Sequence record: OR896157.1
DNA: 64,000 bases
Origin: a phage
Strand: one strand, 5' to 3'
A model generated the notes under the pieces. That model did not search any database and was not told the DNA's origin. It saw only the letters and a program-made list of their open reading frames with translations. Below are positions 191 to 63,438 of the stretch, in pieces (position 1 is the stretch's first letter; each line of letters opens with the position of its first letter). The position numbers were made by a program, and so were the translations under genes.

Positions 191-219
191 ATAGTAACAC
201 AGTCAACGGTGAATGTAAA
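191..219 (-). promoter_or_regulatory. early sigma70-type promoter (TTTACA-17-TACTAT, TGn extended -10)
   Basis: minus strand ccgTTTACA, 17-nt spacer, TACTAT; sits between ORF 223-480 and the gene starting at 155. Confidence 0.55.
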
Positions 220-2745: not shown

Positions 2746-2774
2746 ATAGTATCAAACTTTTAAGCCGATGTAAA
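2746..2774 (-). promoter_or_regulatory. early promoter (TTTACA-17-TACTAT)
   Basis: minus strand aaccgTTTACA, 17 nt, TACTAT; immediately upstream of motA. Confidence 0.55.
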
Positions 2775-2816: not shown

Positions 2817-3110
2817 TTAGCCTCGGAAGAAGTCCGCGAAGAGCTTCTTAGCTTCGTTTAGAGTTTCTGCCACATCTTCAACTTCTGCATCAAGCACTGC
2901 AGTCATGTCATAGTTGTTGACGTATACCCATACCAGCACGTAGTTTTCGCTTTCGCTGTTATACCAAATTGTCAGATAGCTATTGCTATCAGTGTTTGAT
3001 GAGTGCAGGCGTGCTGCATGCATTGCGTCGTCAAGGTCAACACCTGAGTTAGCCAGTAAAGCATTTAAGTTATTGATTAAAGTTTCCATAATTTCCTCAT
3101 TTTGCAACAT
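2817..3110 (-). CDS. hypothetical acidic protein (97 aa)
   Basis: minus-strand ORF. Confidence 0.45.
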   Translation of the reverse strand: MLQNEEIMETLINNLNALLANSGVDLDDAMHAARLHSSNTDSNSYLTIWYNSESENYVLVWVYVNNYDMTAVLDAEVEDVAETLNEAKKLFADFFRG

Positions 3111-3360
3111 AAGCTTCTAAGACTTCTTCAAATTCGCCTTCAAGTTCAGGGCATCCTGCGAAGTCCGCCTCTAAAGTTTCTAAATCAATCAGAACTTCAG
3201 TTAAAATGTATTGACTTTCATTATGGTCATAAACCATAGCCCAATAACGTGCTTGAGTATTCTTGTCAATTGACATTCTGTTAAATTTAACATAAGCGAA
3301 ATCAGAAGTTTCCGCGATAATACCAGCATTTGTTAAGGCAGCAACGATAATTGAAATCAT
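3097..3360 (-). CDS. hypothetical acidic protein (87 aa)
   Basis: minus-strand ORF downstream of an early promoter. Confidence 0.45.
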   Translation of the reverse strand: MISIIVAALTNAGIIAETSDFAYVKFNRMSIDKNTQARYWAMVYDHNESQYILTEVLIDLETLEADFAGCPELEGEFEEVLEAYVAK

Positions 3361-3391
3361 TTTGTTTACTCCGTTTGGTTTTGATAGAGCT

Positions 3392-3420
3392 ATAATACCA
3401 TAAGCAAACGATGATGTAAA
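3392..3420 (-). promoter_or_regulatory. early promoter (TTTACA-17-TATTAT)
   Basis: minus strand aaccgTTTACA, 17 nt ending TGG, TATTAT. Confidence 0.55.
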
Positions 3421-3490
3421 CGGTTGAGTTAAAGAATTTTTAAAGTTAACCAGAACGGTTGAGGGATTGTGCGTAGAAAGGATGATTAAT
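3421..3490 (-). repeat. promoter-upstream module, copy A (shared blocks gtaaacggttga / ccagaacggttgag / aaggatgatNaat)
   Basis: same three blocks in the same order recur at 54507-54575 upstream of another early promoter. Confidence 0.5.
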
Positions 3491-3496
3491 TATATG

Positions 3497-3522
3497 GACT
3501 CGGCTCTAGAATTAACTAGAGC
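3497..3522 (-). terminator. stem-loop downstream of gene 52 (GGCTCTAG-loop-CTAGAGCC)
   Basis: perfect 8-bp inverted repeat just after the gene 52 stop; no clear U-tract. Confidence 0.3.
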
Positions 3523-3545
3523 CGTTTAGAGTGATACAGAAGCTC

Positions 3546-4925
3546 TTAGAGAGCCTCTAGGTCCTTCATATACTCAATTTCTGGAGTAGTTTCTTGCCAG
3601 TACTTCAGCTCAGCTTTCAGGTCTTTAGCTTGTTGAGCAAGTTTCTTTGCTTCGTCACTTGTGATGTGATAGATGTTCATTGACACTAACTTGTCAACAA
3701 ATGGTGCATAAGTTGGACGAGATTCAAGTTCAGAAGTCAGTTGTTTACGAGTTTTGCCTTGAATGACAATACTACCTTCAATAACTTCTTTGATGAACAT
3801 CGCTTTAGCCAAAGCTAATTTGAATGCTTCATCGCATTCTTTGACTTTGTGTTCAATTCGTTTGACAATGTAAGTCTTACGAACTTCCACAAAGTGCTTG
3901 ATAAGTTCAGAAGAACTTTGGAACTTATCGTTTAACTTTCCGTTTTCATCAATGACCACGATGAATTGAGACATCTTCTCAACCAATTTGAAGTCACGCA
4001 TGATTTTCTCATGCCGCTGCTCATCGTCTTGGCCAAGCATATAATCTTTCTTGAACTTCACTTTAAAGCCAAAGCCGGTCTTTGAACAATCATCAACGTA
4101 AGAGATGAAGTTCTTATCTACCATTGGCTCAAGTACTTTTTCCACATAAGTTTCGCGGTCAAACTTAGCTGGAATTTCGCTGATGTACATTTGAGATGCT
4201 GAAGTGAACTTATAAAGACCACGGCATTCAATTGACCCATCTTCAAGACGAACTACTTCACCGCGGAATTGTGGAATTTGAACTTCTGGTTCTTTATCCA
4301 GTTTTCCTTGAAGAGCTAATTTAGTACATTCAACTACTGATTCAAAATTATGTGGAAGAATCTTAGTAGCATAACCAGTTGCAATTCCCTGTACACCGTT
4401 CAGAAGGACGGTTGGAATAATTGGAAGATAGAATGCAGGTGGAACGTGCTCTTTATCTTTATGCTCTGGAGCAATTTCAGTGTCTTTATAGACCTTACGG
4501 AAATTGTCAGAAATACGACAGAAGATATAACGAGATGCTGCCGCTTTTTGTACCAATCGTGAACCGAAGTTTCCTTGACCATCCAAAAGAGGATAGTTGT
4601 TGTTCCAAGTGTTAGCCATAAGCGCGCCAGCATCTTGTGCCGAGCCTTCGCCATGGTGATAACCGAGGTCAGCAACACCACCTGCCACAGAAGCCAATTT
4701 ATGGAATTTTTCTTTATTACCACGAGACAAATCTAGTGCACGAGCAATAACAAATCGTTGAACTGGCTTGAAGCCATCAATTAAGTTAGGAATTGCACGG
4801 TTTTCTACTGTGTAGATTGCAAATTCTTTGGCTTCATTGTCAATGATGCTTTGAAGGTTTCTTACATTAAGTTGACCAACAGAGTCATCGAGTTGTTTAG
4901 ACATCATGTCAAAAATAGTTGTCAT
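3546..4925 (-). CDS. 52: DNA topoisomerase II medium subunit gp52 (GyrA/ParC-like)
   Basis: 459 aa; contains IPNLIDGFKPVQRFVIARALDL and LDGQGNFGS topoisomerase motifs; matches remembered T4 gp52. Confidence 0.9.
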   Translation of the reverse strand: MTTIFDMMSKQLDDSVGQLNVRNLQSIIDNEAKEFAIYTVENRAIPNLIDGFKPVQRFVIARALDLSRGNKEKFHKLASVAGGVADLGYHHGEGSAQDAGALMANTWNNNYPLLDGQGNFGSRLVQKAAASRYIFCRISDNFRKVYKDTEIAPEHKDKEHVPPAFYLPIIPTVLLNGVQGIATGYATKILPHNFESVVECTKLALQGKLDKEPEVQIPQFRGEVVRLEDGSIECRGLYKFTSASQMYISEIPAKFDRETYVEKVLEPMVDKNFISYVDDCSKTGFGFKVKFKKDYMLGQDDEQRHEKIMRDFKLVEKMSQFIVVIDENGKLNDKFQSSSELIKHFVEVRKTYIVKRIEHKVKECDEAFKLALAKAMFIKEVIEGSIVIQGKTRKQLTSELESRPTYAPFVDKLVSMNIYHITSDEAKKLAQQAKDLKAELKYWQETTPEIEYMKDLEAL

Positions 4926-5693: not shown

Positions 5694-5730
5694 ATCATTT
5701 TCCTCAATCAATTAAAAGTTTATCCTCAAT

Positions 5731-5744
5731 GGGCCCGAAGGCCC
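5731..5744 (-). terminator. GGGCC-CGAA-GGCCC hairpin between small ORF and ndd
   Basis: GC stem with CGAA loop; weak U-tract, so may act as RNA stability/processing element rather than terminator. Confidence 0.3.
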
Positions 5745-5748
5745 TGAA

Positions 5749-5958
5749 TTAAAGTTCTGAACTTTGCTGAGCCCCATTCCACAGAACTTCTACTACACTC
5801 TTGAGTCCATCAGCTTGTACTGCTTGGACAATTTCAATAGTAGCCCAGATGCTAAAACCAATTCCAGCAACAATTAGAACAACTACAACAGAAAAGAAAA
5901 TCCAGAAAATCTTTTCCATTTTATCCATACGAGAACCAAATGTAGTCTTGCGACGCAT
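5749..5958 (-). CDS. small membrane protein (69 aa)
   Basis: hydrophobic segment FWIFFSVVVVLIVAGIGFSIW; ATG with GGAAAA RBS. Confidence 0.45.
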   Translation of the reverse strand: MRRKTTFGSRMDKMEKIFWIFFSVVVVLIVAGIGFSIWATIEIVQAVQADGLKSVVEVLWNGAQQSSEL

Positions 5959-6115: not shown

Positions 6116-6730
6116 CTATAGTATACCATTAAACGGAGAATGTAAACGGCAGAGATTAAAAAGATTTAGATACCAGCCCTGATAGTTGCTCTTACGAACC
6201 ACGGATTTGAGGTCTTCGTGGTCTCCAGCAAACTTTAGGGTAAACTGGTAAACACCAGACGAACTTTCTACTACATCTAATATGATAATACAGTCCGCTA
6301 CTCTGTGTGTCAAGAAGGGTCCTAGGTTTATCCCTGAGCCACCAGGATAGTCTCCTGAGTAACCAGTAGTGACTGAAATCCACTTTGAATCTGACTGATG
6401 AGTCTTGACCTCAATGCGAAGTCCGCAGAATCTTGGATGAGCAAGAACATCCCAGGCGTATGTGTAAGGGTCGTCATGATTTTCCTGACCACCTGCAACA
6501 TAACCATCCATCCAATCTGCTACAGTTCGTTCAGCAAGTTGAGCAATTTCACACCGCTTGTTTACAAAATCTTTATCTTGGTCTGGGTCTTGACGAAGAG
6601 AATAAGCGGCAGTACTTTTGATTTTGACTCTATCTTCTGGTGTTAAATCACTGAATGACCGGGTAAAAGTCTTCAGGGCTTTCAGTCTCATCAACCCTGG
6701 ATTCGATTTTTTCATATTCACCTTCTTCAT
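6116..6730 (-). CDS. hypothetical protein at the T4 denB (endonuclease IV) position; start uncertain
   Basis: ORF between ndd and rIIB as denB is in T4; several in-frame Met candidates (6745, 6730, 6715, 6691); T4 DenB sequence not recalled, so call is positional only. Confidence 0.4.
   Translation of the reverse strand: MKKVNMKKSNPGLMRLKALKTFTRSFSDLTPEDRVKIKSTAAYSLRQDPDQDKDFVNKRCEIAQLAERTVADWMDGYVAGGQENHDDPYTYAWDVLAHPRFCGLRIEVKTHQSDSKWISVTTGYSGDYPGGSGINLGPFLTHRVADCIIILDVVESSSGVYQFTLKFAGDHEDLKSVVRKSNYQGWYLNLFNLCRLHSPFNGIL
6118..6146 (-). promoter_or_regulatory. early promoter (TTTACA-17-TACTAT)
   Basis: minus strand tgccgTTTACA, 17 nt, TACTAT; overlaps 3-prime end of the denB-position ORF and drives the small membrane ORFs and ndd. 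Confidence 0.5.
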
Positions 6731-6984: not shown

Positions 6985-7014
6985 TCCTCAAAAATAAAGG
7001 GCCCGAAGGCCCTT
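6985..7014 (-). terminator. intrinsic terminator-like hairpin after rIIB (AAGGGCC-TTCG-GGCCCTT then U-rich)
   Basis: minus strand reads hairpin followed by UAUUUUU. Confidence 0.5.
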
Positions 7015-7017
7015 ACA

Positions 7018-7998
7018 TTAGATGTATGAATCAGTTTCTTCGTTGTATTCCGCTTCACGGATTACTTTGTACTGACAAGTACGCATTTTAGCGTTGTTGT
7101 AATCTACCGGGATAGATACTACATCTCGTGGATGTACTTTAACAACTACCAGACGAGAATCACCATAACGGAAGTGCTTGATGTAACTACGAGCGCAAAC
7201 ATGCAGACCAGCTTCACAGGTGAGATTTTCATCTTCAACCACATGAGTACGAGGCATTTTAACTACTCGGCCAACAGAGTTATCAAACTTACCGGTATAG
7301 CAGTCAGTGTAATCGTTGCGAATAACTTTCCATGCCAGGAAATGACCATCTTCAGTGATTTCGATGTCGTTGGCTTGGAGGAAGTCAAACAGACGAGTCA
7401 CTGCAGTTTTGCTTGGGTTTTCCAGCAGATTTTCCAGGAACGGCAGATAGAATTCAAAATCTTCACCATTCTGCATATCATTGATGATGCGGTCAACCAG
7501 ACCAGATTTGATTTCAATGTCCTGGTAGAACAGCTGACCATTTTCAATGCGAATGTTACCGTCAACATAAGAAGTAATTGCCTTCTCAATGTTAATCAGA
7601 TTAATTGCTTCTTCAAATTCGCCATCAACACACAGCTGAAGAGCTTGTTTGAAGTTCGGATGGTCTTTATCTGCTGCATAGGTATCACGACCATAAGTGA
7701 TAGACAGGAACTTAGAAGAACCGGCCCATACAACATCTTCTGGTCTGAATGGATTAGTTGCAGCTTGACTGATTGCATTAGTTTCTGCAATTTTTGCAGC
7801 TTCAGTATGACCAACAACAGCTTCAATACCAACTGAACTAGCAGCTTTAATTTCTTTGATTACTCGACGCACTGTGTCAACAGAACAGCTGAAGAATTTT
7901 GCGACTTCTTCCTGAGTGTAACCACCCATATATGCATCATAGATTTCACGCTTTTGCGCTGCATCAAACATTTTAACAACAGAGACTTTCTTACTCAT
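7018..7998 (-). CDS. rIIB: RIIB protein
   Basis: ATG at 7998 (GGTGA RBS); central block SGLVDRIINDMQNGEDFEFYLPFLENLLENPS...EITEDG...KVVKMPRT...KVHPRDVVSIPVDYNNAKMRTCQY matches remembered T4 rIIB. Confidence 0.85.
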   Translation of the reverse strand: MSKKVSVVKMFDAAQKREIYDAYMGGYTQEEVAKFFSCSVDTVRRVIKEIKAASSVGIEAVVGHTEAAKIAETNAISQAATNPFRPEDVVWAGSSKFLSITYGRDTYAADKDHPNFKQALQLCVDGEFEEAINLINIEKAITSYVDGNIRIENGQLFYQDIEIKSGLVDRIINDMQNGEDFEFYLPFLENLLENPSKTAVTRLFDFLQANDIEITEDGHFLAWKVIRNDYTDCYTGKFDNSVGRVVKMPRTHVVEDENLTCEAGLHVCARSYIKHFRYGDSRLVVVKVHPRDVVSIPVDYNNAKMRTCQYKVIREAEYNEETDSYI

Positions 7999-10934: not shown

Positions 10935-12779
10935 TTATTCGCTCATCCAGACCTTGCGTGGAGCAGCATCAGAACCCATAACCATCTCGAAGAGTTCTTT
11001 CCAGTTTTCCGGAAGAGAAACTACATCATAATGAGGTTCTTGGATTACTCGTTCATATTCGTCTTCTTCCAAAGAACCGAGCCCTTTGATGTAACGAAGT
11101 TTCCAACCAGCAAGTTCATCTTTTTCAGCTTCATATTCAGCGGCAGTGTAATACCACTTCTGTTTGTCTCCTTTACTCATAATGATAACAGGAGTTTTGA
11201 CGAAGCGAATTCGACCTTCTTCAAACAGACGAGGCCAATTACTAAAGAATGCCAAAAGACTTGGATAGATTGAACCTGTTCCGTCAACATCCGCGTCAGT
11301 CATGATAGCGATGTTTTTGTAGTTCAGATTTTCATAATCTTCACCAATAGTCAGTCCAGTGATTGCACAGATATCGAAGACTTCTTTGTTCTTCATTGCT
11401 TCTGCTGCAGTCATTCCCCAAGTATTCAGGAACTTACCACGAAGTGGATAACCACCATGAAGTTTACGGTCACGAGTAGTCAGAAGATAACCAATCGCAG
11501 AATCACCTTCTGTTAAGAACAGAGTGGTTTCTTCTTTATCATTACCATAAAGTTCTGGCTTAATGTGTTTAGCAACCTTAGCTTTTGAAGCAGCTTTTGC
11601 AGCTTTAGTTTCAGCAGCTTTTTCTGCCGCCAATTTACGAGCCAACATAGCTTCAATAATTGGCATATGAATTGCTTCGGACTTCATAACTTGTTGAGCA
11701 AGTTTTTTGTAGTCCAAATTCAAATGAGCTTTAACTTCACCCCACGGAGATGTCAGACGTTCTTTAGTCTGAGAATCAAATCGCATGTTGCTCATATCAC
11801 GAACGAACATCACAAAAGTAAAACACTCTTTGATACGAGCTTTGTTTACTTCCAATTTGTACTTGCGTTTGAGCATTGGGATAAGTTCATTTGACAATTC
11901 GTCGACAACCAAATCAACGTGAGAACCACCCTTAGAAGTATGAATGTTATTCACGTAAGTCAGTTGGCGGAAACCATCATCAGAACGACCAATTGCAATT
12001 GAACAATTATCTTCATCAGCTACAATAGCTTCTTCATCAAATTGCTTAGCGAATTTCTTGAATCCGCCATTGACTTTTTTGCCTTGGAATTTGAATTCAA
12101 TATCCGGGAATACTACCGCCAGAGTTTGAAGACGGTCCAGAACAATTGATTCATCTACTTCTGTAAGTCCTGAACTTTCGAAGTGACTGAAGTCAGGAAT
12201 GAACGATACTCGAGTTCCGGTCTTGGTTTGAATGAACTCTTTTTCCTTTGCTGGCTTACTATCCCAAGAGATATTCTCAGCCCCATTAGAGCATCGAACG
12301 ATGATTTCGTTTTGTCCGTCACAAGTAGCTCCTGCAAAAGTTACAGAGAAAATATTAGTCAGTGCAGAACCGACACCATTCATACCACCAGTTTTGCGTT
12401 CAGCATCATCGCCAAAGTTACCACCGGCACGTGGACGAGTCCAAGCAGCTACTGGTCCAGGAATTTCATCACCTTCTGGAGTGACTACTGGAGCTTGTGG
12501 AAGACCACGACCATTATCTGTTACGATAACTTTATTGCCTTTGAGCTCAACTGAAATTTTATTTGCAAACTTGAAGTTGGTACGAATTGCTTCATCGACT
12601 GAGTTATCAATGATTTCGTCAATCAGCTTGATTACGCCCGGAACATAAGTTACACTTTGGAATTTACCAAACAGAAAACGTTCATGAGCTTCCATAGCTG
12701 AAGAGCCGATGTACATACCAGAGCGCTTAATGATATGCTCTCGGTCTGACAGAATTTTAATTTCGTTCTTAATCATCAT
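10935..12779 (-). CDS. 39: DNA topoisomerase II large subunit gp39 (GyrB-like ATPase), single ORF covering the T4 39 plus 60 regions
   Basis: ATGATG start at 12779 (GAGGA RBS); GHKL ATPase motifs ...DEIIDNSVDEA... and ...VIVTDNGRGLP...; no split or bypass segment. Confidence 0.9.
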   Translation of the reverse strand: MMIKNEIKILSDREHIIKRSGMYIGSSAMEAHERFLFGKFQSVTYVPGVIKLIDEIIDNSVDEAIRTNFKFANKISVELKGNKVIVTDNGRGLPQAPVVTPEGDEIPGPVAAWTRPRAGGNFGDDAERKTGGMNGVGSALTNIFSVTFAGATCDGQNEIIVRCSNGAENISWDSKPAKEKEFIQTKTGTRVSFIPDFSHFESSGLTEVDESIVLDRLQTLAVVFPDIEFKFQGKKVNGGFKKFAKQFDEEAIVADEDNCSIAIGRSDDGFRQLTYVNNIHTSKGGSHVDLVVDELSNELIPMLKRKYKLEVNKARIKECFTFVMFVRDMSNMRFDSQTKERLTSPWGEVKAHLNLDYKKLAQQVMKSEAIHMPIIEAMLARKLAAEKAAETKAAKAASKAKVAKHIKPELYGNDKEETTLFLTEGDSAIGYLLTTRDRKLHGGYPLRGKFLNTWGMTAAEAMKNKEVFDICAITGLTIGEDYENLNYKNIAIMTDADVDGTGSIYPSLLAFFSNWPRLFEEGRIRFVKTPVIIMSKGDKQKWYYTAAEYEAEKDELAGWKLRYIKGLGSLEEDEYERVIQEPHYDVVSLPENWKELFEMVMGSDAAPRKVWMSE

Positions 12780-13234: not shown

Positions 13235-13263
13235 ATTTTATCATACTTTGTAGAGAAAGTAAA
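13235..13263 (-). promoter_or_regulatory. early promoter (TTTACT-17-TAAAAT)
   Basis: weaker -10 than family consensus; immediately downstream of the terminator hairpin. Confidence 0.4.
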
Positions 13264-13267
13264 CAAC

Positions 13268-13287
13268 AAAGGGCCCGAAGGCCCTTT
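13268..13287 (-). terminator. intrinsic terminator after the SGNH hydrolase gene (AAAGGGCC-TTCG-GGCCCTTT then UUGUUGUUU)
   Basis: hairpin starts right at the stop codon. Confidence 0.5.
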
Positions 13288-13289
13288 CA

Positions 13290-14825
13290 TTATACTTTAC
13301 CTTGCAGAACGTTAGTGAACTGCGAACCACGCCAGAAGTAGCCTTGGTCATTCGGGTGAACGTTATCGCTTGAGGTATACAGATTTGCGTTCTCTGCAGT
13401 AACCCAACCTTTAACATCTACGAACTCTAAGTCTAACTCAGTAGTAAGTTCAATCAGTGCGTCACGAACCGCTGCGATTTGGTCAGTCATTCCAAGAGGA
13501 GTTGCTGGTCCAAATACGATAATTTTAGCTTGTGGCTGATATTGCTTAATCAGAGCAATAGACTCTCTGAAGTTAGTTTTAAGCAAATCAATTCTGCCAG
13601 CCGGAGCGTCATTATAGCCTAAAGCTAAAGTAATGATATCTGGAGTAAAACTCAGAGTTGCAAGCTTAGCCGTGATACGAGCTTGAGGCTGAGTTGAGTT
13701 TGTTGAAGTCCAACCAGAACCACCGATGCCATCAGCTAATCCAACTAAACCAAGCTTATCACAATAGAAACGGAAGTCGTTAAACGACGCCTGAGTTGCC
13801 ATTGTACCGAAGGTGTAAGAGTCACCAAGCTGCCAAATCATCTTAGCCGGACGAGTAATCGCAGTGATAGTTTTTCCAGTATCAACATAAATTCCACCAA
13901 AGGCAGTATTCACGCCAACCAGAGAATATTCACGCATTTGCTCAACACCGTTCCAATCGATGCTATAGATGTAAACTGCACCAGAAGAATCAGTAGTGAC
14001 TGAAGTTGCAGAAATACGTTGTCCATCCACATAAAGATCATACTTGGAGTTATTGCCAGCGAGTTTGAAATCAATTTTGCTTGAATCGGTTTTGAAATTA
14101 ACTCGGCATTGAGTTCCGTTGCCGGTACCATTTCCTCTGTATCCAGAAACAGCATCTTTGACATCAGAACCCCAATAAGTGATTTTAGCATCAGTACGAG
14201 CAATAGTTACACCAGCATAAATCGTTGAAGCTACGCCTGCATTAGTTGTTACAGTGAATTTAGCACCTGTGCCAGTTCCGCCTGTCGCTGAAATTTCACC
14301 GGTAGGAGCAGTTGCGTACACACCAGGTTTGCGAATTTGAGCTGTTGTAATTGCGCCATCAGCACCTACAGCAGTTACTCGAATCTGTCCAGGAACATCT
14401 CCTTCTGCTCCGGGGATATCAACAATATCTCCGAACACATATCCAGTACCACCAGAAATTATAGTAGCAGTTCCAGATAATCCAACGCCTTTAATCAATT
14501 TTTGAGTAGGCGGATTTGACATTACCGCAACCGGTTGAAGCATTGGTCCTAACGGCGGTTGAGGGTCTGGAACATCTACTGTATATTCGCTTAATGTGTA
14601 TTGATAACCATTTTTAGATTCAATGAAATTAACTTCACCATAATCTACATAAGCTTGTTTGAGAGTATCAATTTGAGGGGCATATTGAGGGTCAGCGTAT
14701 TCACGCCAATCTTTACCTTCTTCCTTGGCTTTAATAAGGATGTTATGAATCCACCAAGGAAGGTAAAGAAAACTTGTATTACGCCACGGAATAGGATGTA
14801 CCGTGGTCCAAATATCTATAGCCAT
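13290..14825 (-). CDS. SGNH/GDSL-family hydrolase with Gly/Thr-rich N-terminal domain (511 aa)
   Basis: C-terminal third has block I GDSYTFG, a GYND-type block (LALGYNDA) and a DNVHPND block (Asp...His catalytic pair); N-terminal region has repeated GGTG/ATGGTGTGAKFTVTT; ATG at 14825 after AAGGAGAA RBS. Confidence 0.6.
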   Translation of the reverse strand: MAIDIWTTVHPIPWRNTSFLYLPWWIHNILIKAKEEGKDWREYADPQYAPQIDTLKQAYVDYGEVNFIESKNGYQYTLSEYTVDVPDPQPPLGPMLQPVAVMSNPPTQKLIKGVGLSGTATIISGGTGYVFGDIVDIPGAEGDVPGQIRVTAVGADGAITTAQIRKPGVYATAPTGEISATGGTGTGAKFTVTTNAGVASTIYAGVTIARTDAKITYWGSDVKDAVSGYRGNGTGNGTQCRVNFKTDSSKIDFKLAGNNSKYDLYVDGQRISATSVTTDSSGAVYIYSIDWNGVEQMREYSLVGVNTAFGGIYVDTGKTITAITRPAKMIWQLGDSYTFGTMATQASFNDFRFYCDKLGLVGLADGIGGSGWTSTNSTQPQARITAKLATLSFTPDIITLALGYNDAPAGRIDLLKTNFRESIALIKQYQPQAKIIVFGPATPLGMTDQIAAVRDALIELTTELDLEFVDVKGWVTAENANLYTSSDNVHPNDQGYFWRGSQFTNVLQGKV

Positions 14826-16817: not shown

Positions 16818-16846
16818 ATAGTATCATAGCCCTCAAGGAAAGTAAA
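16818..16846 (-). promoter_or_regulatory. early promoter (TTTACT-17-TACTAT)
   Basis: TGn extended -10 present. Confidence 0.5.
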
Positions 16847-17342: not shown

Positions 17343-18032
17343 TTAACCGCGACCTTTTGGTAAAGACAGAGGGTCAATTTCATCACCTTCTGGAGCATCT
17401 TCTAAACCAAGAGCATAGCGTTGAGCGTATTTTAACATCAAAATATCTTTAGCGCAATCGTGAATAGAGTCATGCGCAATGAAACCGTCCAAGACACCTT
17501 TACGAAGAGGAGTTGTCGTCAAGTCACGGGTTAAAAGCAGAGATTCAATCGCTGTACGAATATCTCGCTGATTCCAGAACTTGCAAGGCTCTAAGCCGAA
17601 AGTATCGATATCTTTTTCAGCAATACCTTTACGAGCTTCGCCTTCACGGAGAATATCCACAAGAATTGGGAAGTCGAAAGATTGACCACGACACCAACCG
17701 AAAGATTTCCATGGGTCAACACCATTGTCTTTCAGGAATTGAAGCAGCTTGTACAGACCTTCAACATGGTCAATATCTTCATCAGATGGAAGCAGGTTTT
17801 TACGAGCTTCTTCAGATTGAGATTTCCACCACTTCATAGTAGAAGCACCGAACAGACGAACACCTTGTTGTGCTTTAAGGTTGAACTTCAGTTTCATACC
17901 GCGCTGAACGAGTTCATCAAACGTTTCAACTACTTCTGGGTTAGGGTCAAATACAACGGCGGCCACATCAATAACAGCAGAACGAGAGACGTTACCAAAC
18001 GTCTCCCAGTCAATAATAAAATCTTTAATCAT
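17343..18032 (-). CDS. dexA: exonuclease A (DexA, DnaQ-like 3-prime to 5-prime exonuclease)
   Basis: 229 aa; FIIDWETFG...LEPCKFWNQRDIRT...DGFIAHDSIHDCAKDI...DPLSLP matches remembered T4 DexA. Confidence 0.85.
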   Translation of the reverse strand: MIKDFIIDWETFGNVSRSAVIDVAAVVFDPNPEVVETFDELVQRGMKLKFNLKAQQGVRLFGASTMKWWKSQSEEARKNLLPSDEDIDHVEGLYKLLQFLKDNGVDPWKSFGWCRGQSFDFPILVDILREGEARKGIAEKDIDTFGLEPCKFWNQRDIRTAIESLLLTRDLTTTPLRKGVLDGFIAHDSIHDCAKDILMLKYAQRYALGLEDAPEGDEIDPLSLPKGRG

Positions 18033-21473: not shown

Positions 21474-21502
21474 ATCATAACACAGAAGAGAAGGGATGTA
21501 AA
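21474..21502 (-). promoter_or_regulatory. early promoter (TTTACA-17-TATGAT)
   Basis: upstream of the mod-like gene. Confidence 0.5.
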
Positions 21503-26917: not shown

Positions 26918-26946
26918 GATGTTTTCCTCTTGTTTGGTATGAGGTA

Positions 26947-26975
26947 ATAGTAACACACTTCCATGTGCGTGTAAA
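26947..26975 (-). promoter_or_regulatory. early promoter (TTTACA-17-TACTAT)
   Basis: just below gene 41 stop; its -10 side shares a 22-bp tract with the promoter at 58306-58334. Confidence 0.5.
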
Positions 26976-33426: not shown

Positions 33427-33486
33427 TTTATTCTCCTTTTGTGTATAGAAGAATTATACCACATCCGTGTGGTAATGTACAATGCT

Positions 33487-36235: not shown

Positions 36236-36272
36236 TTGGTATGTCTATTATACTCCGCTCTGCTGATAGCAG

Positions 36273-36292
36273 AAAGGGCCCGAAGGCCCTTT
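36273..36292 (-). terminator. hairpin AAAGGGCC-TTCG-GGCCCTTT between regA side and gene 43
   Basis: GC stem, CGAA loop, followed by UUUCUGCU. Confidence 0.45.
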
Positions 36293-36294
36293 AA

Positions 36295-36492
36295 TTAAAG
36301 CGTAATTTCTTCATACTGAATTACATCATTTTCGTCTTTGTATGGCAGAGTAATCACTGTTCCTTCTGGATAAAGAGGAGTGCCATCTGACGAGAACTGA
36401 CTTTTAAGTGAAGCAATTTGACGAGCTAGTTGTTCTTGTGGAGTACCTTCAAACATTATGCACCTATCGTGTATTTTGATTTGAGAGTCCAT
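36295..36492 (-). CDS. hypothetical protein (65 aa)
   Basis: minus-strand ORF overlapping regA 3-prime end. Confidence 0.35.
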   Translation of the reverse strand: MDSQIKIHDRCIMFEGTPQEQLARQIASLKSQFSSDGTPLYPEGTVITLPYKDENDVIQYEEITL

Positions 36493-42427: not shown

Positions 42428-42567
42428 TTCTTTTTCCTCAATTTAAGACGGCGATGTGGAAGTTTTATTTTAATCGCAGATGTATGTTCTCTTTTACCTG
42501 ATATTTGAATCCAGTTAATTTTCATATTTCACCTCAAAGAGATTATATTCTATACTCCAGAAAGCAG

Positions 42568-42587
42568 AAAGGGCCCGAAGGCCCTTT
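42568..42587 (-). terminator. hairpin AAAGGGCC-TTCG-GGCCCTTT upstream of gene 47
   Basis: GC stem, CGAA loop, followed by UUUCUGCUUUCU. Confidence 0.45.
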
Positions 42588-42774
42588 AAATTTTACTGTA
42601 TGTGATAGTTACTTCGGCTTTTGCTTTATCATATGACATCTTGAACCGCCTCATCATTTCAGTCTTGCCGTTATGAATCTTTGCATAATCAATAGCTCTT
42701 TCTAAAGCTTCAGCCGAATAAACAGTTCCGTTGCGGGATACTACAGCAGCTTTTAATATTACAGCTTCCACCAT
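42586..42774 (-). CDS. hypothetical protein (62 aa)
   Basis: minus-strand ORF. Confidence 0.4.
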   Translation of the reverse strand: MVEAVILKAAVVSRNGTVYSAEALERAIDYAKIHNGKTEMMRRFKMSYDKAKAEVTITYSKI

Positions 42775-45597: not shown

Positions 45598-45626
45598 ATA
45601 GTAACACCTTCTGCAACAGATGTAAA
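45598..45626 (-). promoter_or_regulatory. early promoter (TTTACA-17-TACTAT)
   Basis: minus strand gaccgTTTACA, 17 nt, TACTAT. Confidence 0.5.
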
Positions 45627-49173: not shown

Positions 49174-49181
49174 TATTTATA
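49174..49181 (-). promoter_or_regulatory. late promoter TATAAATA upstream of gene 49
   Basis: perfect 8-mer on minus strand 24 nt upstream of the gene 49 ATG; T4 gene 49 is known to have a late promoter. Confidence 0.55.
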
Positions 49182-53593: not shown

Positions 53594-53672
53594 TTCTATT
53601 CCTTCATTGTCAGGCGTAAATTTGATTGAGAATCCGTGAAACCATTATACATCACGGATTCCTAAAGCATTT

Positions 53673-54446
53673 TTAAATTTTTACTTTTGTTGGACGCTTA
53701 AAGAACGAATGAGTGCTATCGTCTTTAGCATGCTCAAAAGTTGCAGAGAATTCAATAATTCCACGATAATCCATCGGAACTGCTTTTGGTAATGAGCCAT
53801 AAACAGTAGCACCGTTTTCAAGACGGACAGTCATTTTGACTTGCATTCCATAATAGTCTTCCCAGCACTTAACTGAAACGACTTTACCTTTCACTGTTTG
53901 CTTACCAGTGGGTGCTTCACCTTTATTCTTTTTGAATGATTCATATAGTTCATCAAAGAATTTCTTAGAAGCTTCTTGAATAGCCATAAGAATGTTCTTA
54001 TGAGCTCTGACTTCAACCATCATAACAGTGGTGAAATCTTCAAGTTCCCAGCGTTTGTAAGGCTCACGGACCTCGATAGGGCAACCGTAAAGCTTAAGTT
54101 CAACATACATTGCTGCAGTTAAACGAAGTTTCCACCATCCATGGTCTCTTGTGTACTCTGGTTTGTCAAAGTAATCAAGTTCCGTAACGTATGGAAGATA
54201 ACTACCAGCGTGATATGCTTCCACTTCGCCATGTTCATTTTCCCAGAGATAACCATCGAACGGAGCATGTGGACGATCATCAATTCCCCAGGTTGGAGCA
54301 ACCACCTTATCAAATCCTTCACGACCGTAGTGGGTCTTCGCCCATCCAGCATTCAATTCCAAAGCGCGTTCTTCAACTTTCGCCCGGCGTGCAGCATGTG
54401 CTTTACGATTTTCATCTAAGATTGAGTCGATGATTTCAGTTAGCAT
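53673..54446 (-). CDS. hypothetical protein (257 aa)
   Basis: ATG at 54446 after GGAGAAA RBS. Confidence 0.5.
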   Translation of the reverse strand: MLTEIIDSILDENRKAHAARRAKVEERALELNAGWAKTHYGREGFDKVVAPTWGIDDRPHAPFDGYLWENEHGEVEAYHAGSYLPYVTELDYFDKPEYTRDHGWWKLRLTAAMYVELKLYGCPIEVREPYKRWELEDFTTVMMVEVRAHKNILMAIQEASKKFFDELYESFKKNKGEAPTGKQTVKGKVVSVKCWEDYYGMQVKMTVRLENGATVYGSLPKAVPMDYRGIIEFSATFEHAKDDSTHSFFKRPTKVKI

Positions 54447-54476
54447 TTTGTTTCTCCGTTGGTTGATTACGAGACT

Positions 54477-54505
54477 ATCATATACTAACTTTTTGTTGTT
54501 GTAAA
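54477..54505 (-). promoter_or_regulatory. early promoter (TTTACA-17-TATGAT)
   Basis: minus strand aaccgTTTACA, 17 nt, TATGAT. Confidence 0.5.
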
Positions 54506-54506
54506 C

Positions 54507-54575
54507 GGTTGAATGCGGATTCACCAGAACGGTTGAGAGGAACTTTCTTAGGAAGGATGATAAATCATATTACGA
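54507..54575 (-). repeat. promoter-upstream module, copy B
   Basis: shares gtaaacggttga / ccagaacggttgag / aaggatgatNaat blocks with 3421-3490. Confidence 0.5.
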
Positions 54576-54587
54576 GGATACAAAAAT

Positions 54588-54606
54588 GCCCCAGCGAAGC
54601 CGGGGC
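54588..54606 (-). terminator. intrinsic terminator (GCCCCGGC-loop-GCTGGGGC then AUUUUUGU)
   Basis: downstream of ORF 54612-55040. Confidence 0.5.
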
Positions 54607-54611
54607 GAACT

Positions 54612-55040
54612 TTAGTGATAAGCTGGAGTATTAGGGTCGCCAGAGAACCACACAGACTTTTCTATAACAGCTGTTTGCATTTGATTGTTATAAAGAGTCT
54701 CATTGATAATTTTTTCCATCTCAAATAAATGCGCAGCTTGCAGTTGCTCACGGTCCATTGCGATTAAAGCTTTACATTTTTCTTTCATATAAGTTCGTTT
54801 GCCAATCTGTCTTCCTACCAATGGCACTTCACTTCCCAATTTAAGCCAGTTATTAAAAGCAGCATCCGTAGAGTTTTTGTATTCTGCTATAGAATCAGTC
54901 ATACGATTATAAAAGTCTAATTTTGCTTCTTTGTTGTTCTTTCGAAGCATTTCTAAGGCTGTAGATTTCAAACTCACCGCTTCCACTCCTCTGTTCGACC
55001 TATTCGGTCCGGGTGACAATTCCAGAAATAGTCCTTGCAC
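54612..55040 (-). CDS. hypothetical protein (142 aa)
   Basis: minus-strand ORF. Confidence 0.45.
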   Translation of the reverse strand: MQGLFLELSPGPNRSNRGVEAVSLKSTALEMLRKNNKEAKLDFYNRMTDSIAEYKNSTDAAFNNWLKLGSEVPLVGRQIGKRTYMKEKCKALIAMDREQLQAAHLFEMEKIINETLYNNQMQTAVIEKSVWFSGDPNTPAYH

Positions 55041-58268: not shown

Positions 58269-58305
58269 TTTATTCTCCGAGTTTCTATTTGTTTGGTATG
58301 AGGTA

Positions 58306-58334
58306 ATAGTATCATCATCTCATACCGTTGTAAA
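58306..58334 (-). promoter_or_regulatory. early promoter (TTTACA-17-TACTAT)
   Basis: directly upstream of the ATPase gene; shares 22-bp tract with promoter at 26947-26975. Confidence 0.5.
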
Positions 58335-58589: not shown

Positions 58590-58618
58590 ATAATACCATA
58601 TGCTATAGCACTTGTAAA
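58590..58618 (-). promoter_or_regulatory. early promoter (TTTACA-17-TATTAT)
   Basis: TGG extended -10. Confidence 0.5.
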
Positions 58619-58953: not shown

Positions 58954-58982
58954 ATAGTATCAAAACTTAAAGCATCTGTAAA
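58954..58982 (-). promoter_or_regulatory. early promoter (TTTACA-17-TACTAT)
   Basis: minus strand TTTACA, 17 nt, TACTAT. Confidence 0.5.
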
Positions 58983-61080: not shown

Positions 61081-61532
61081 TATTTAAATTCCAAAGTTGG
61101 GCAGAACTTCTCTTTGCGAGCTTTAATGAAAGCAATAATGATATTAGGTTGTGGTTCAACGTAAGTACCATTTCTGATAGCTTCCCATTTTTTATCTTCT
61201 TTCTTTTCTTTTCGTCTTTGAACGACTCGATAAATTCCGTAACCAATACAGAAAATTGTACCAAAAATAGCCGCCAACAAAATCCAACCAATAATCATTC
61301 CAGGGACAAATGCTACAGCAGACGAAAGAATCACACCACATTGAGCGAATAACCAAGTAGCTAAATCTACACCACTAGCCCATCCAACAAAAACTACAGC
61401 ACAAACAGCGAATAGCAGGAGGAAAGCATGCCAAACACCTTTCCAAAAATATGGACACAGAGAACGTGGAGCGCTTTCAGCGCCATTCATAGTAACGAGT
61501 TTGTAGTGCCAAGAGTTAGTATTGATTTGCAT
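61080..61532 (-). CDS. multi-pass membrane protein (150 aa)
   Basis: at least three hydrophobic segments. Confidence 0.5.
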   Translation of the reverse strand: MQINTNSWHYKLVTMNGAESAPRSLCPYFWKGVWHAFLLLFAVCAVVFVGWASGVDLATWLFAQCGVILSSAVAFVPGMIIGWILLAAIFGTIFCIGYGIYRVVQRRKEKKEDKKWEAIRNGTYVEPQPNIIIAFIKARKEKFCPTLEFK

Positions 61533-62840: not shown

Positions 62841-62869
62841 ATTATACCATTAACTAAGTTGTATGTAAA
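62841..62869 (-). promoter_or_regulatory. early promoter (TTTACA-17-TATAAT)
   Basis: consensus -10; upstream of the zinc-finger gene. Confidence 0.55.
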
Positions 62870-63409: not shown

Positions 63410-63438
63410 ATAGTATCACCTTTTGAAGAGGATGTAAA
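63410..63438 (-). promoter_or_regulatory. early promoter (TTTACA-17-TACTAT)
   Basis: minus strand aaccgTTTACA, 17 nt, TACTAT. Confidence 0.5.

Follow-up and report, generated by a model that had tools for sequence, protein, structure and literature searches.

We analysed a 64,000-nucleotide (nt) stretch of the phage sequence record OR896157.1 (hereafter the window, numbered from its first letter), with a focus on an early promoter at 3392-3420 (site 1) and on a conserved non-coding module that lies upstream of it and recurs at a second promoter, 54477-54505 (site 2). Over a 3-kb piece round this feature, identity is 99% to Enterobacter phage vB_EclM_AS6 and 90-98% to PG7, CC31 and other Karamvirus phages (Straboviridae, Tevenvirinae). 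In AS6, the minus strand of the counterpart stretch codes for AsiA, MotA, Ndd, the gp52 topoisomerase subunit and two small open reading frames (ORFs); MotA was confirmed by Pfam, and the GC skew is uniformly negative across the window. By these matches, we assign the window to the early region of a Karamvirus, a T4-type phage of the CC31/PG7/AS6 kind, with leftward transcription of minus-strand genes. The site 1 promoter is predicted to drive an ORF of 87 amino acids (aa) at 3097-3360 and lies upstream of the motA operon, while the site 2 promoter is predicted to drive a 257-aa ORF at 53673-54446.

Both promoters belong to a well-defined family. A search of the window for CCGTTTACA-N14-TGNTAYTAT with up to two mismatches gave 12 minus-strand matches (0.02 expected), and a relaxed scan gave 16 minus-strand TTTAC-N17-TAnnnT sites, each located before a Shine-Dalgarno (SD) sequence and an ATG. 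The position weight matrix (PWM) built from these 16 sites scores them at 21-41 bits, and the next best among 128,000 positions reaches 12. CCG precedes the -35 hexamer in 10 of the 16 promoters and TGn precedes the -10 in 13. The family described in the initial annotation, with its 17-nt spacing, is therefore real, stands cleanly above background and has the same coordinates; a possible 17th member, TGTACA-N17-TATAAT, is found at 33481. We interpret these 16, perhaps 17, motifs as predicted sigma-70-dependent early promoters of Karamvirus, of T4-like build (extended -35, TGn, -10 and conserved leader). The early promoters of T4 have the same GTTTACA -35, 17-nt spacer, TGn, TAnnnT -10 and UP element, and also a consensus that extends beyond the hexamers (Hinton 2010, PMC2988021). 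The T4 motA promoter is a direct homologue, in which the AT-rich stretch upstream of -35 is nearly identical to that of the window; in contrast to T4, the Karamvirus consensus has CCG at -38 to -36. The sequence match and the T4 homologue suggest that the family would be transcribed early by the unmodified host polymerase.

The module spans 3421-3499 at site 1 and 54507-54572 at site 2, and forms an insert of about 65 nt that separates the stem-loop from the promoter; when compared with the T4 motA cassette, the insert lies after the terminator T-run and before the AT-rich region. On the sense (minus) strand it reads, 5' to 3', block A, a linker of 8-10 nt, block B and an AT-rich stretch, followed by the promoter, and the two sites align from the stem-loop through the start codon, with an 11-nt indel between block B and -35 that is due to loss of the AT-rich stretch at site 2. 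Block A consists of ATRAT-NN-ATCAT followed by a 7-nt pyrimidine tract, and block B of CYCTCARCCGTTCTGGTKAA, with the consensus written CYCTCAACCGTTCTGGTKAA(YC). The block-B 20-mer occurs twice in the window (0.01 expected), and TCAACCGTT four times in 64 kb, two per module site and none elsewhere (0.54 expected); the dyad ATRATNNATYAT is likewise restricted to the two modules. In phage STML-198 the block A dyad is also perfect, with ATAAT…ATTAT in place of ATGAT…ATCAT. The 7 nt past ATCAT hold a pyrimidine at 116 of 119 positions (17 variants), and C and T interchange at six of the seven. A three-block module had been proposed in the initial annotation: the duplication at both sites and their alignment are borne out, but the first of its blocks, gtaaacggttga, is the -35 hexamer with the family-wide TCAACCG-type flank, and the limits then given have to be extended, as the true module reaches further upstream (ATATNATTNATCATCCTTYCTA).

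To quantify conservation, we aligned site 1 from 14 phages and compared identities between genera. The hairpin plus block A (57 nt) and block B (21 nt) are both 93% identical. Identity is lower in the 10-nt linker (31%), the AT stretch (58%), the promoter spacer (51%), the leader (50%) and the upstream sequence (33%), with 90% for the -35 hexamer and 77% for the -10. Site 2 shows 97% identity in block B, 100% in the linker and 45% in the promoter spacer. The difference between the blocks (93%) and the linker (31%) or promoter spacer (51%) at site 1 indicates that the blocks are under purifying selection, and judged by these alignments blocks A and B are constrained as strongly as the core promoter. 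Recent transfer does not explain the pattern, which is a mosaic on a 10-nt scale.

The geometry of the module is also constrained. Blocks A and B are 23 or 24 nt apart in every copy, and the distances from block B to -35 are 30 (2 copies), 32 (6), 41 (4), 42 (6), 43 (4), 53 (3) and 54 nt (1), with 32, 43 and 54 nt again found in metagenome copies. In Erwinia phage Cronus and Klebsiella phage Marfa, where block B is replaced, the distance from block A to -35 is still 66-67 nt by our own count, and the 41-43 class implies 65-66 nt. The coordinates of all features are collected in Table 1.

Table 1. Module elements, stem-loops, predicted promoters and related features of the window
Feature	Positions	Strand	Basis or remark
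Site 1 early promoter, TTTACA-N17-TATTAT with TGG	3392..3420	-	consensus scan, relaxed scan, PWM 35.3
Site 1 AT-rich UP-like spacer and TCAACCG flank of -35	3421..3444	-	resembles T4 motA upstream stretch
Site 1 block B, sense CCCTCAACCGTTCTGGTTAAC; imperfect dyad TCAACC-N5-GGTTAA	3445..3465	-	alignment
Site 1 linker, 10 nt, length fixed, sequence free	3466..3475	-	alignment
Site 1 block A, sense GTCCATATAATTAATCATCCTTTC; near-dyad ATAAT-TA-ATCAT and pyrimidine tract	3476..3499	-	alignment
Site 1 stem-loop CGGCTCTAG-TTAATT-CTAGAGCCG, 21 nt past the gp52 (topoisomerase) stop codon	3501..3524	-	hairpin scan
Site 2 early promoter, TTTACA-N17-TATGAT without TGn	54477..54505	-	relaxed scan, PWM 27.0
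Site 2 block B, sense CTCTCAACCGTTCTGGTGAATCC	54517..54539	-	alignment
Site 2 linker GAAAGTTC, invariant among class II copies	54540..54547	-	alignment
Site 2 block A, sense TAATATGATTTATCATCCTTCCTAA; perfect dyad ATGAT-TT-ATCAT	54548..54572	-	alignment
Site 2 intrinsic terminator GCCCCGGC-TTC-GCTGGGGC then ATTTTTG, after the DUF7203 ORF	54588..54606	-	textbook terminator
Weak sigma-70-like match TTGAGA-N17-GATGAT, blocks B and A, site 2	54533..54561	+	9/12
Site 1 counterpart, TTGAGG-N16-GATGAT	3459-3486	+	8/12 by own count; unlisted in promoter scan
Early promoter	191..219	-	consensus scan, relaxed scan, PWM
Early promoter, directly upstream of motA; AT-rich hairpin 9 nt upstream	2746..2774	-	consensus scan, relaxed scan, PWM
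Early promoter	6118..6146	-	consensus scan, relaxed scan, PWM
Early promoter, 4 nt after GGGCC...GGCCC terminator	13235..13263	-	relaxed scan, PWM
Early promoter	16818..16846	-	consensus scan, relaxed scan, PWM
Early promoter, TAGAAT -10, among weaker scores	20737..20765	-	relaxed scan, PWM
Early promoter	21474..21502	-	consensus scan, relaxed scan, PWM
Early promoter	26947..26975	-	consensus scan, relaxed scan, PWM
Early promoter, terminator ending 19 nt upstream	45598..45626	-	consensus scan, relaxed scan, PWM
Early promoter	58306..58334	-	consensus scan, relaxed scan, PWM
Early promoter	58590..58618	-	consensus scan, relaxed scan, PWM
Early promoter, hairpin ending 32 nt upstream	58954..58982	-	consensus scan, relaxed scan, PWM
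Early promoter, TTTACA-N17-TATAAT	62841..62869	-	relaxed scan, PWM
Early promoter, hairpin ending 21 nt upstream	63410..63438	-	consensus scan, relaxed scan, PWM
Shared 22-nt tract, copy 1: -10 hexamer TACTAT and leader TACCTCATACCAAACA, promoter 26947-26975	26931..26952	-	exact
Shared 22-nt tract, copy 2, promoter 58306-58334	58290..58311	-	exact

With 82 nt of site 1 as query, BLAST found the module in 59 phage records at 117 places. There are one to four per genome, and the records belong to Karamvirus, Moonvirus (Moon, Merlin, CF1) and Gelderlandvirus (S16, STML-198, CGG4-1 and others), so that the shared blocks are indeed present in relatives, across three genera. A pattern scan of viral contigs gave 23 module copies (a first scan with a 14-mer pattern was too unspecific), and a metagenome scan added one more Karamvirus with the same three spacings, together with one apparently unrelated match. 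Karamvirus has a third module site outside the window, behind an ORF with an N-terminus like that of T4 internal proteins, and Moon and Merlin have one further site. The copies fall into two classes: class I is found at site 1, after gp52 or motA.1, and class II at sites 2 and 3. Orthologous sites hold their class across genera, with the exception of one apparent conversion in Moon, where site 1 carries a class II module. Marfa and Cronus keep a homologue of block A (…ATCATCCTTCCT…), but block B has diverged in Marfa and a hairpin stands in its place in Cronus. In the T4 motA cassette, no counterpart of blocks A and B was found.

At the third site, the preceding ORF starts with MLNFKEFITE… in PG7 (L157, ~3340-3600) and in contigs L159, L092 and L120, like the capsid-targeting N-terminus of T4 internal proteins, and the small ORF behind the cassette in PG7 is apparently frameshift-truncated relative to Pet-CM3-4. 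The viral contigs L127-L129, in which gp52 is 73% identical, carry, at ~2150-2230 in the place of the module, CCATATAAATCTAT and then ATCCCTCC twice, with starts 12 nt apart; this interval has no block B and is a different pyrimidine-rich version of the module interval, with a C/G ratio of 5.2.

The initial annotation had also likened these promoters to cassettes that shuffle accessory ORFs in T4-type phages. The promoter-early stem-loop (PeSL) cassettes of T4-type phages are ORF-swapping recombination points (Arbiol et al. 2010, PMC2839356; Comeau et al. 2014, PMC4122927), in which a stem-loop is followed by an AT-rich stretch, an early promoter and SD/ATG (PMC2839356, PMC4122927). By their layout, the promoters of the window are organised as such cassettes, with the stem-loop of the upstream gene, the promoter and SD/ATG. 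They share with PeSLs the sigma-70-like TTTACW-N17-TAYWAT promoter, the many repeats in early and hyperplastic regions and ORF-replacement junctions inside the cassette; they have an AT-rich region upstream of -35, which is missing at site 2 through a 10-11-nt deletion, and an SD with a start codon at the 3' end. Unlike PeSLs as described in these papers, in which the stem-loop leads directly to the AT-rich stretch and -35, two to four cassettes per genome here contain the extra two-block insert of ~65 nt, conserved across genera, and a hairpin abuts only about a third of the window promoters. The phage set of the PeSL papers was without Karamvirus, Moonvirus and Gelderlandvirus.

Gene content in relatives changes at these cassettes. 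In a metagenomic Karamvirus the 87-aa ORF is replaced, with junctions at 3104/3105 and 3364/3365, and about half of the Karamvirus genomes examined have an unrelated ORF after the site 1 promoter; in the aligned genomes two unrelated ORFs alternate there, each with its own -10 variant, TATTAT or TATAGT. Moon-like phages have only 3413-3532 in common with the window, at 82-87% identity against 76-77% for the flanking genes, and an additional motA.1-like ORF upstream, while in Salmonella phage S16 and Citrobacter phage Ursula motA lies directly behind the site 1 cassette. A further junction is found near 54460. Homologous recombination between cassettes exchanges the downstream ORFs, and the proposal of ORF-shuffling T4-type cassettes holds, given that they consist of published PeSL elements and that gene-content junctions of relatives fall inside or at the edge of the cassettes. 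The cassettes are thus known biology, PeSL-type early promoters, in genera for which we found no published description, and PeSL-type shuffling is documented for these genera as well. A literature search for the motifs and for promoter or transcription start site studies of these genera found nothing relevant, and the upstream module is a real, selected and apparently undescribed addition to the PeSL cassette. The downstream products of 87, 97, 257 and 332 aa match solely families of unknown function, and give no clue to a regulator.

The stem-loops themselves are less regular than had been proposed. According to our reading of the hairpin table, a terminator-like hairpin ends within 35 nt of -35 in 5 of the 16 promoters (63438, 58982, 45626, 13263 and 2774), so a clear nearby hairpin does occur, but the initial statement that many promoters sit directly downstream of one was overstated, as only a minority abut. 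At both module sites the hairpins end 80-82 nt upstream. The site 2 hairpin has the GC-rich stem and T-run of an intrinsic terminator. The site 1 hairpin has a perfect 9-bp stem, unchanged in 14 phages of three genera with one variable loop base, but it has no T-run and is not a canonical terminator. The conserved element at site 1 continues beyond this hairpin to 3532 (ACTCTA).

We tentatively favour the reading that the module is a protein-binding upstream regulatory site, which would modulate these particular early promoters. Our preference rests on the base-for-base conservation of block B, the dyads present in both blocks, their fixed register and the quantised distance to the promoter. 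A regulator binding site had already been suggested in the initial annotation, and the purifying selection, fixed register and quantised distances are as expected of a cis-regulatory site, short of proving it. The module would act on DNA as a bipartite upstream binding site, formed by the ATRAT-NN-ATYAT dyad and pyrimidine tract of block A and, one fixed register off, the TYMACC-N5-GGTKAA dyad of block B. One or two host or phage proteins would bind it on one helix face relative to RNA polymerase, and binding would set the strength or timing of these early promoters, including that heading the operon of motA, the middle-transcription activator. Upstream activator sites of strong promoters include those for Fis at rrnB P1 and the one for IHF at about -86 of lambda PL. 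They resemble the module in position (-50 to -115), in the helical-phase dependence that the module may have and in their association with very strong promoters that have to capture polymerase fast; this is a resemblance of layout, and no match of the module to the Fis or IHF consensus was established.

Several observations weigh against a binding site. No binding protein was identified, and no known operator motif matched in any test; informal comparisons with Fis, IHF, CRP, Fur, NtrC and other sites were unconvincing. The free C/T variation in the block A tract speaks more for a constraint on composition or on RNA than for recognition of particular bases. In four distant phages (Serratia CHI14-like, Erwinia) a homologue of the 257-aa gene lies behind a promoter without the module, and T4 motA is expressed without it, which makes the module dispensable in principle. 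The distances from block B to -35 fit a period of ~11 nt (resultant length 0.90; P = 0.007 with six values and 0.04 with a conservative four), but helical phasing is suggestive only, because the distance classes stem from three independent indels, mostly the gain or loss of an AT-rich unit of ~11-13 nt.

It is possible, if rather doubtful, that a dedicated sequence-specific factor, host-encoded or phage-delivered, uses blocks A and B as its operators and controls a small immediate-early regulon in several T4-like genera; the candidate regulon would comprise the motA-operon promoter, the internal-protein-locus promoter and one hyperplastic-region promoter. If true, a promoter-specific layer of control would be added to an early class thought to be ruled by promoter strength and Alt modification. 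To our knowledge, T4-type early promoters are usually taken as constitutive and maximally strong, with Alt ADP-ribosylation and the general shut-off as the only known modulators. A non-coding element that is conserved like the -35 hexamer and present at only a few early promoters points to promoter-specific regulation or insulation of immediate-early units; one of the module promoters is the entry to the operon of motA, the middle-mode switch, and the element is found in at least three genera.

We regard as unlikely, although next in rank to the binding site, that it is a rut-like Rho-loading insulator, an untranslated, unstructured, C-rich and G-poor segment of read-through RNA that would cause termination before the next cassette and reinforce the stem-loop, devoid of a U-tract at site 1. 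The composition agrees with this: the site 1 module is the most C-over-G 60-nt sense-strand window (C 19, G 4; rank 1 of 63,941), the site 2 module ranks 1145 (top 2%), and all ten tabulated homologues, including Marfa, Cronus and L127, have 13-20 YC dimers and a sense C/G of 1.5-5.2, against an average of 0.87. The constraint on the block A tract is for pyrimidines rather than particular bases, the module RNA is predicted to be unstructured, and in T4, Rho-dependent stops upstream of delayed-early genes are established, located like the module in untranslated, C-rich and G-poor RNA between early units, there immediate-early and delayed-early genes (PMC2988021). However, C content is just 21-28% in most copies, and strong intrinsic terminators are already present at sites 2 and 3. 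Rut sites are normally without base-for-base conservation or fixed register, whereas block B, with its Gs, and ATCAT are almost invariant across genera, and Rho needs neither a fixed A-B register nor a quantised promoter distance. Loading of Rho thus accounts for the free C/T variation and the composition, whereas it leaves the base-level invariance and the geometry unexplained, and we rank it below the binding site. The least probable reading is a divergent weak plus-strand sigma-70 promoter, with its -35 in block B (TTGAGA/TTGAGG) and its -10 in block A (GATGAT/AATGAT/GATAAT) 16-17 nt apart, from which an antisense RNA would cross the stem-loop and reach into the upstream gene's 3' end. Two conserved blocks that flank free sequence of fixed length are a classic promoter signature, the site 2 match has 9 of 12 positions, the plus-strand hexamer stays RATRAT in the compared copies by our own reading, and class I has a long invariant stretch downstream of that -10, which could represent a conserved transcript with a hairpin at its 5' end. 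Yet chance would give about one such match every 350 nt, the site 1 version has only 8 of 12 by our own count and is absent from the scan list, and the fit to the PWM of the phage's own promoters is poor (rank 169 at site 2, 3356 at site 1). In several copies a recurrent A-to-G change makes the -35 CTGAGA, RZH has TTTAGG, and in Marfa and Cronus, where block A is kept, no -35-like hexamer was found at 16-18 nt; in addition, the antisense RNA would have no terminator, and the conservation of the blocks reaches far past two hexamers.

The module might also lack a function and be the scar of cassette recombination, a degraded half PeSL spread by the same recombination, which we hold to be quite improbable. 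Degraded half PeSLs with misplaced -35 and -10 copies have been described near indels (PMC4122927). In the module, the first 10 nt of block B equal the promoter's flank at -43 to -34, and block A includes a -10-like hexamer, which in class II is TATGAT, the unusual -10 of the site 2 promoter; the sequence GTATCACTCTAA at site 1 resembles the ORF end TATCACTAA at site 2, and the class II module at Moon's site 1 speaks for conversion between sites. Against a mere scar, the adjoining linker, spacer and leader retain 31-51% identity between genera, against 93-97% in blocks A and B, and class is common to orthologous rather than paralogous sites across genera, a pattern of conservation that homogenisation within a genome fails to explain. 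The antisense promoter and the pure relic are both less well supported than the binding site or the Rho insulator. As an account of origin the recombination relic is probably right, the module having probably started as a degraded half-cassette that is now kept by purifying selection.

The sequence GTATCACTCTAA is located at 3533-3545 on the minus strand, just upstream of the site 1 hairpin, and TATCACTAA is the end of the DUF7203 ORF, whose last codons and stop (TAT CAC TAA) lie at 54607-54620 on the minus strand, before the site 2 terminator. From this likeness, the cassette may have been copied together with an ORF tail.

A number of other candidates were rejected. A regex scan for a MotA-dependent middle promoter (TGCTTNA box 11-13 nt upstream of TAnnnT) found none in the modules, with matches elsewhere, such as 53671, and the gp55 late promoter TATAAATA has its single occurrence in the window at 49181. 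Sequestration of the SD by anti-SD pairing in read-through RNA was dismissed by reasoning, as the complementarity is inconsistent among cassettes with different downstream genes. A small ORF across the module is annotated in some records (e.g. CW742), but by inspection no ORF is conserved in the aligned copies and there is no codon pattern. Nor is block B a host sequence: among 185,579 bacterial genomes, a 21-mer scan matched just once, in an unrelated Bacillota metagenome-assembled genome, which is taken as chance. Rfam covariance models gave no match at the gathering threshold anywhere in the window, and RNA folding of both strands of both modules returned only the terminator hairpins, with sense module z-scores of -0.5 to -1.8 and no significant structure. 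In an informal comparison with the patterns of sigma-54, sigma-E and sigma-28, and the CRP, Fis, IHF, Fur, NtrC, FadR, Cra, TyrR, H-NS and DnaA motifs, none fitted across the module classes.

The promoters at 26947-26975 and 58306-58334 had been reported to share a 22-bp tract. It is exact at both (0 expected), but lies mostly downstream of the promoter coordinates given with it, and corresponds to the -10 hexamer and transcribed leader. This leader type is also found in Merlin, Moon and STML-198. Several leader types are shared between promoters, among them AGCNCTATCAAAACCAA… (3420, 16846, 58618) and TACCTCATACCAAACAA… (26975, 58334), which both occur in other genera, so that conservation reaches into the 5' untranslated region, where it may have a role in mRNA stability or translation.

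A perfect T4-type MotA box (TTTGCTTA) is present at 3401-3408 on the minus strand, in the spacer of the site 1 promoter and 3 nt upstream of its -10, which is far too close for middle promoter use. It is found in all aligned Karamvirus site 1 promoters and is absent from other genera, and it could allow MotA to repress the promoter heading its own operon. A good middle-type promoter (AATGCTTTA-N12-TATAAT) lies at ~53636-53671 on the minus strand, at the stop of the 257-aa ORF, and three other MotA-box matches are found at 61081, 14544 and 13130; matches at these positions indicate that the phage uses a T4-type MotA box.

A near-identical terminator, AAAGGGCCCGAAGGCCCTTT, is present in five copies (5722-5752, 6990-7020, 13262-13292, 36267-36297 and 42562-42592), two of which have 48 nt in common (36247, 42542), and is reminiscent of the GGGC/GCCC stem-loop motif discussed for PeSLs. 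Finally, an exact 20-nt direct repeat (AATTTCATCACCTTCTGGAG) is found at 12462-12481 and 17376-17395, 4.9 kb apart and apparently within coding sequence.

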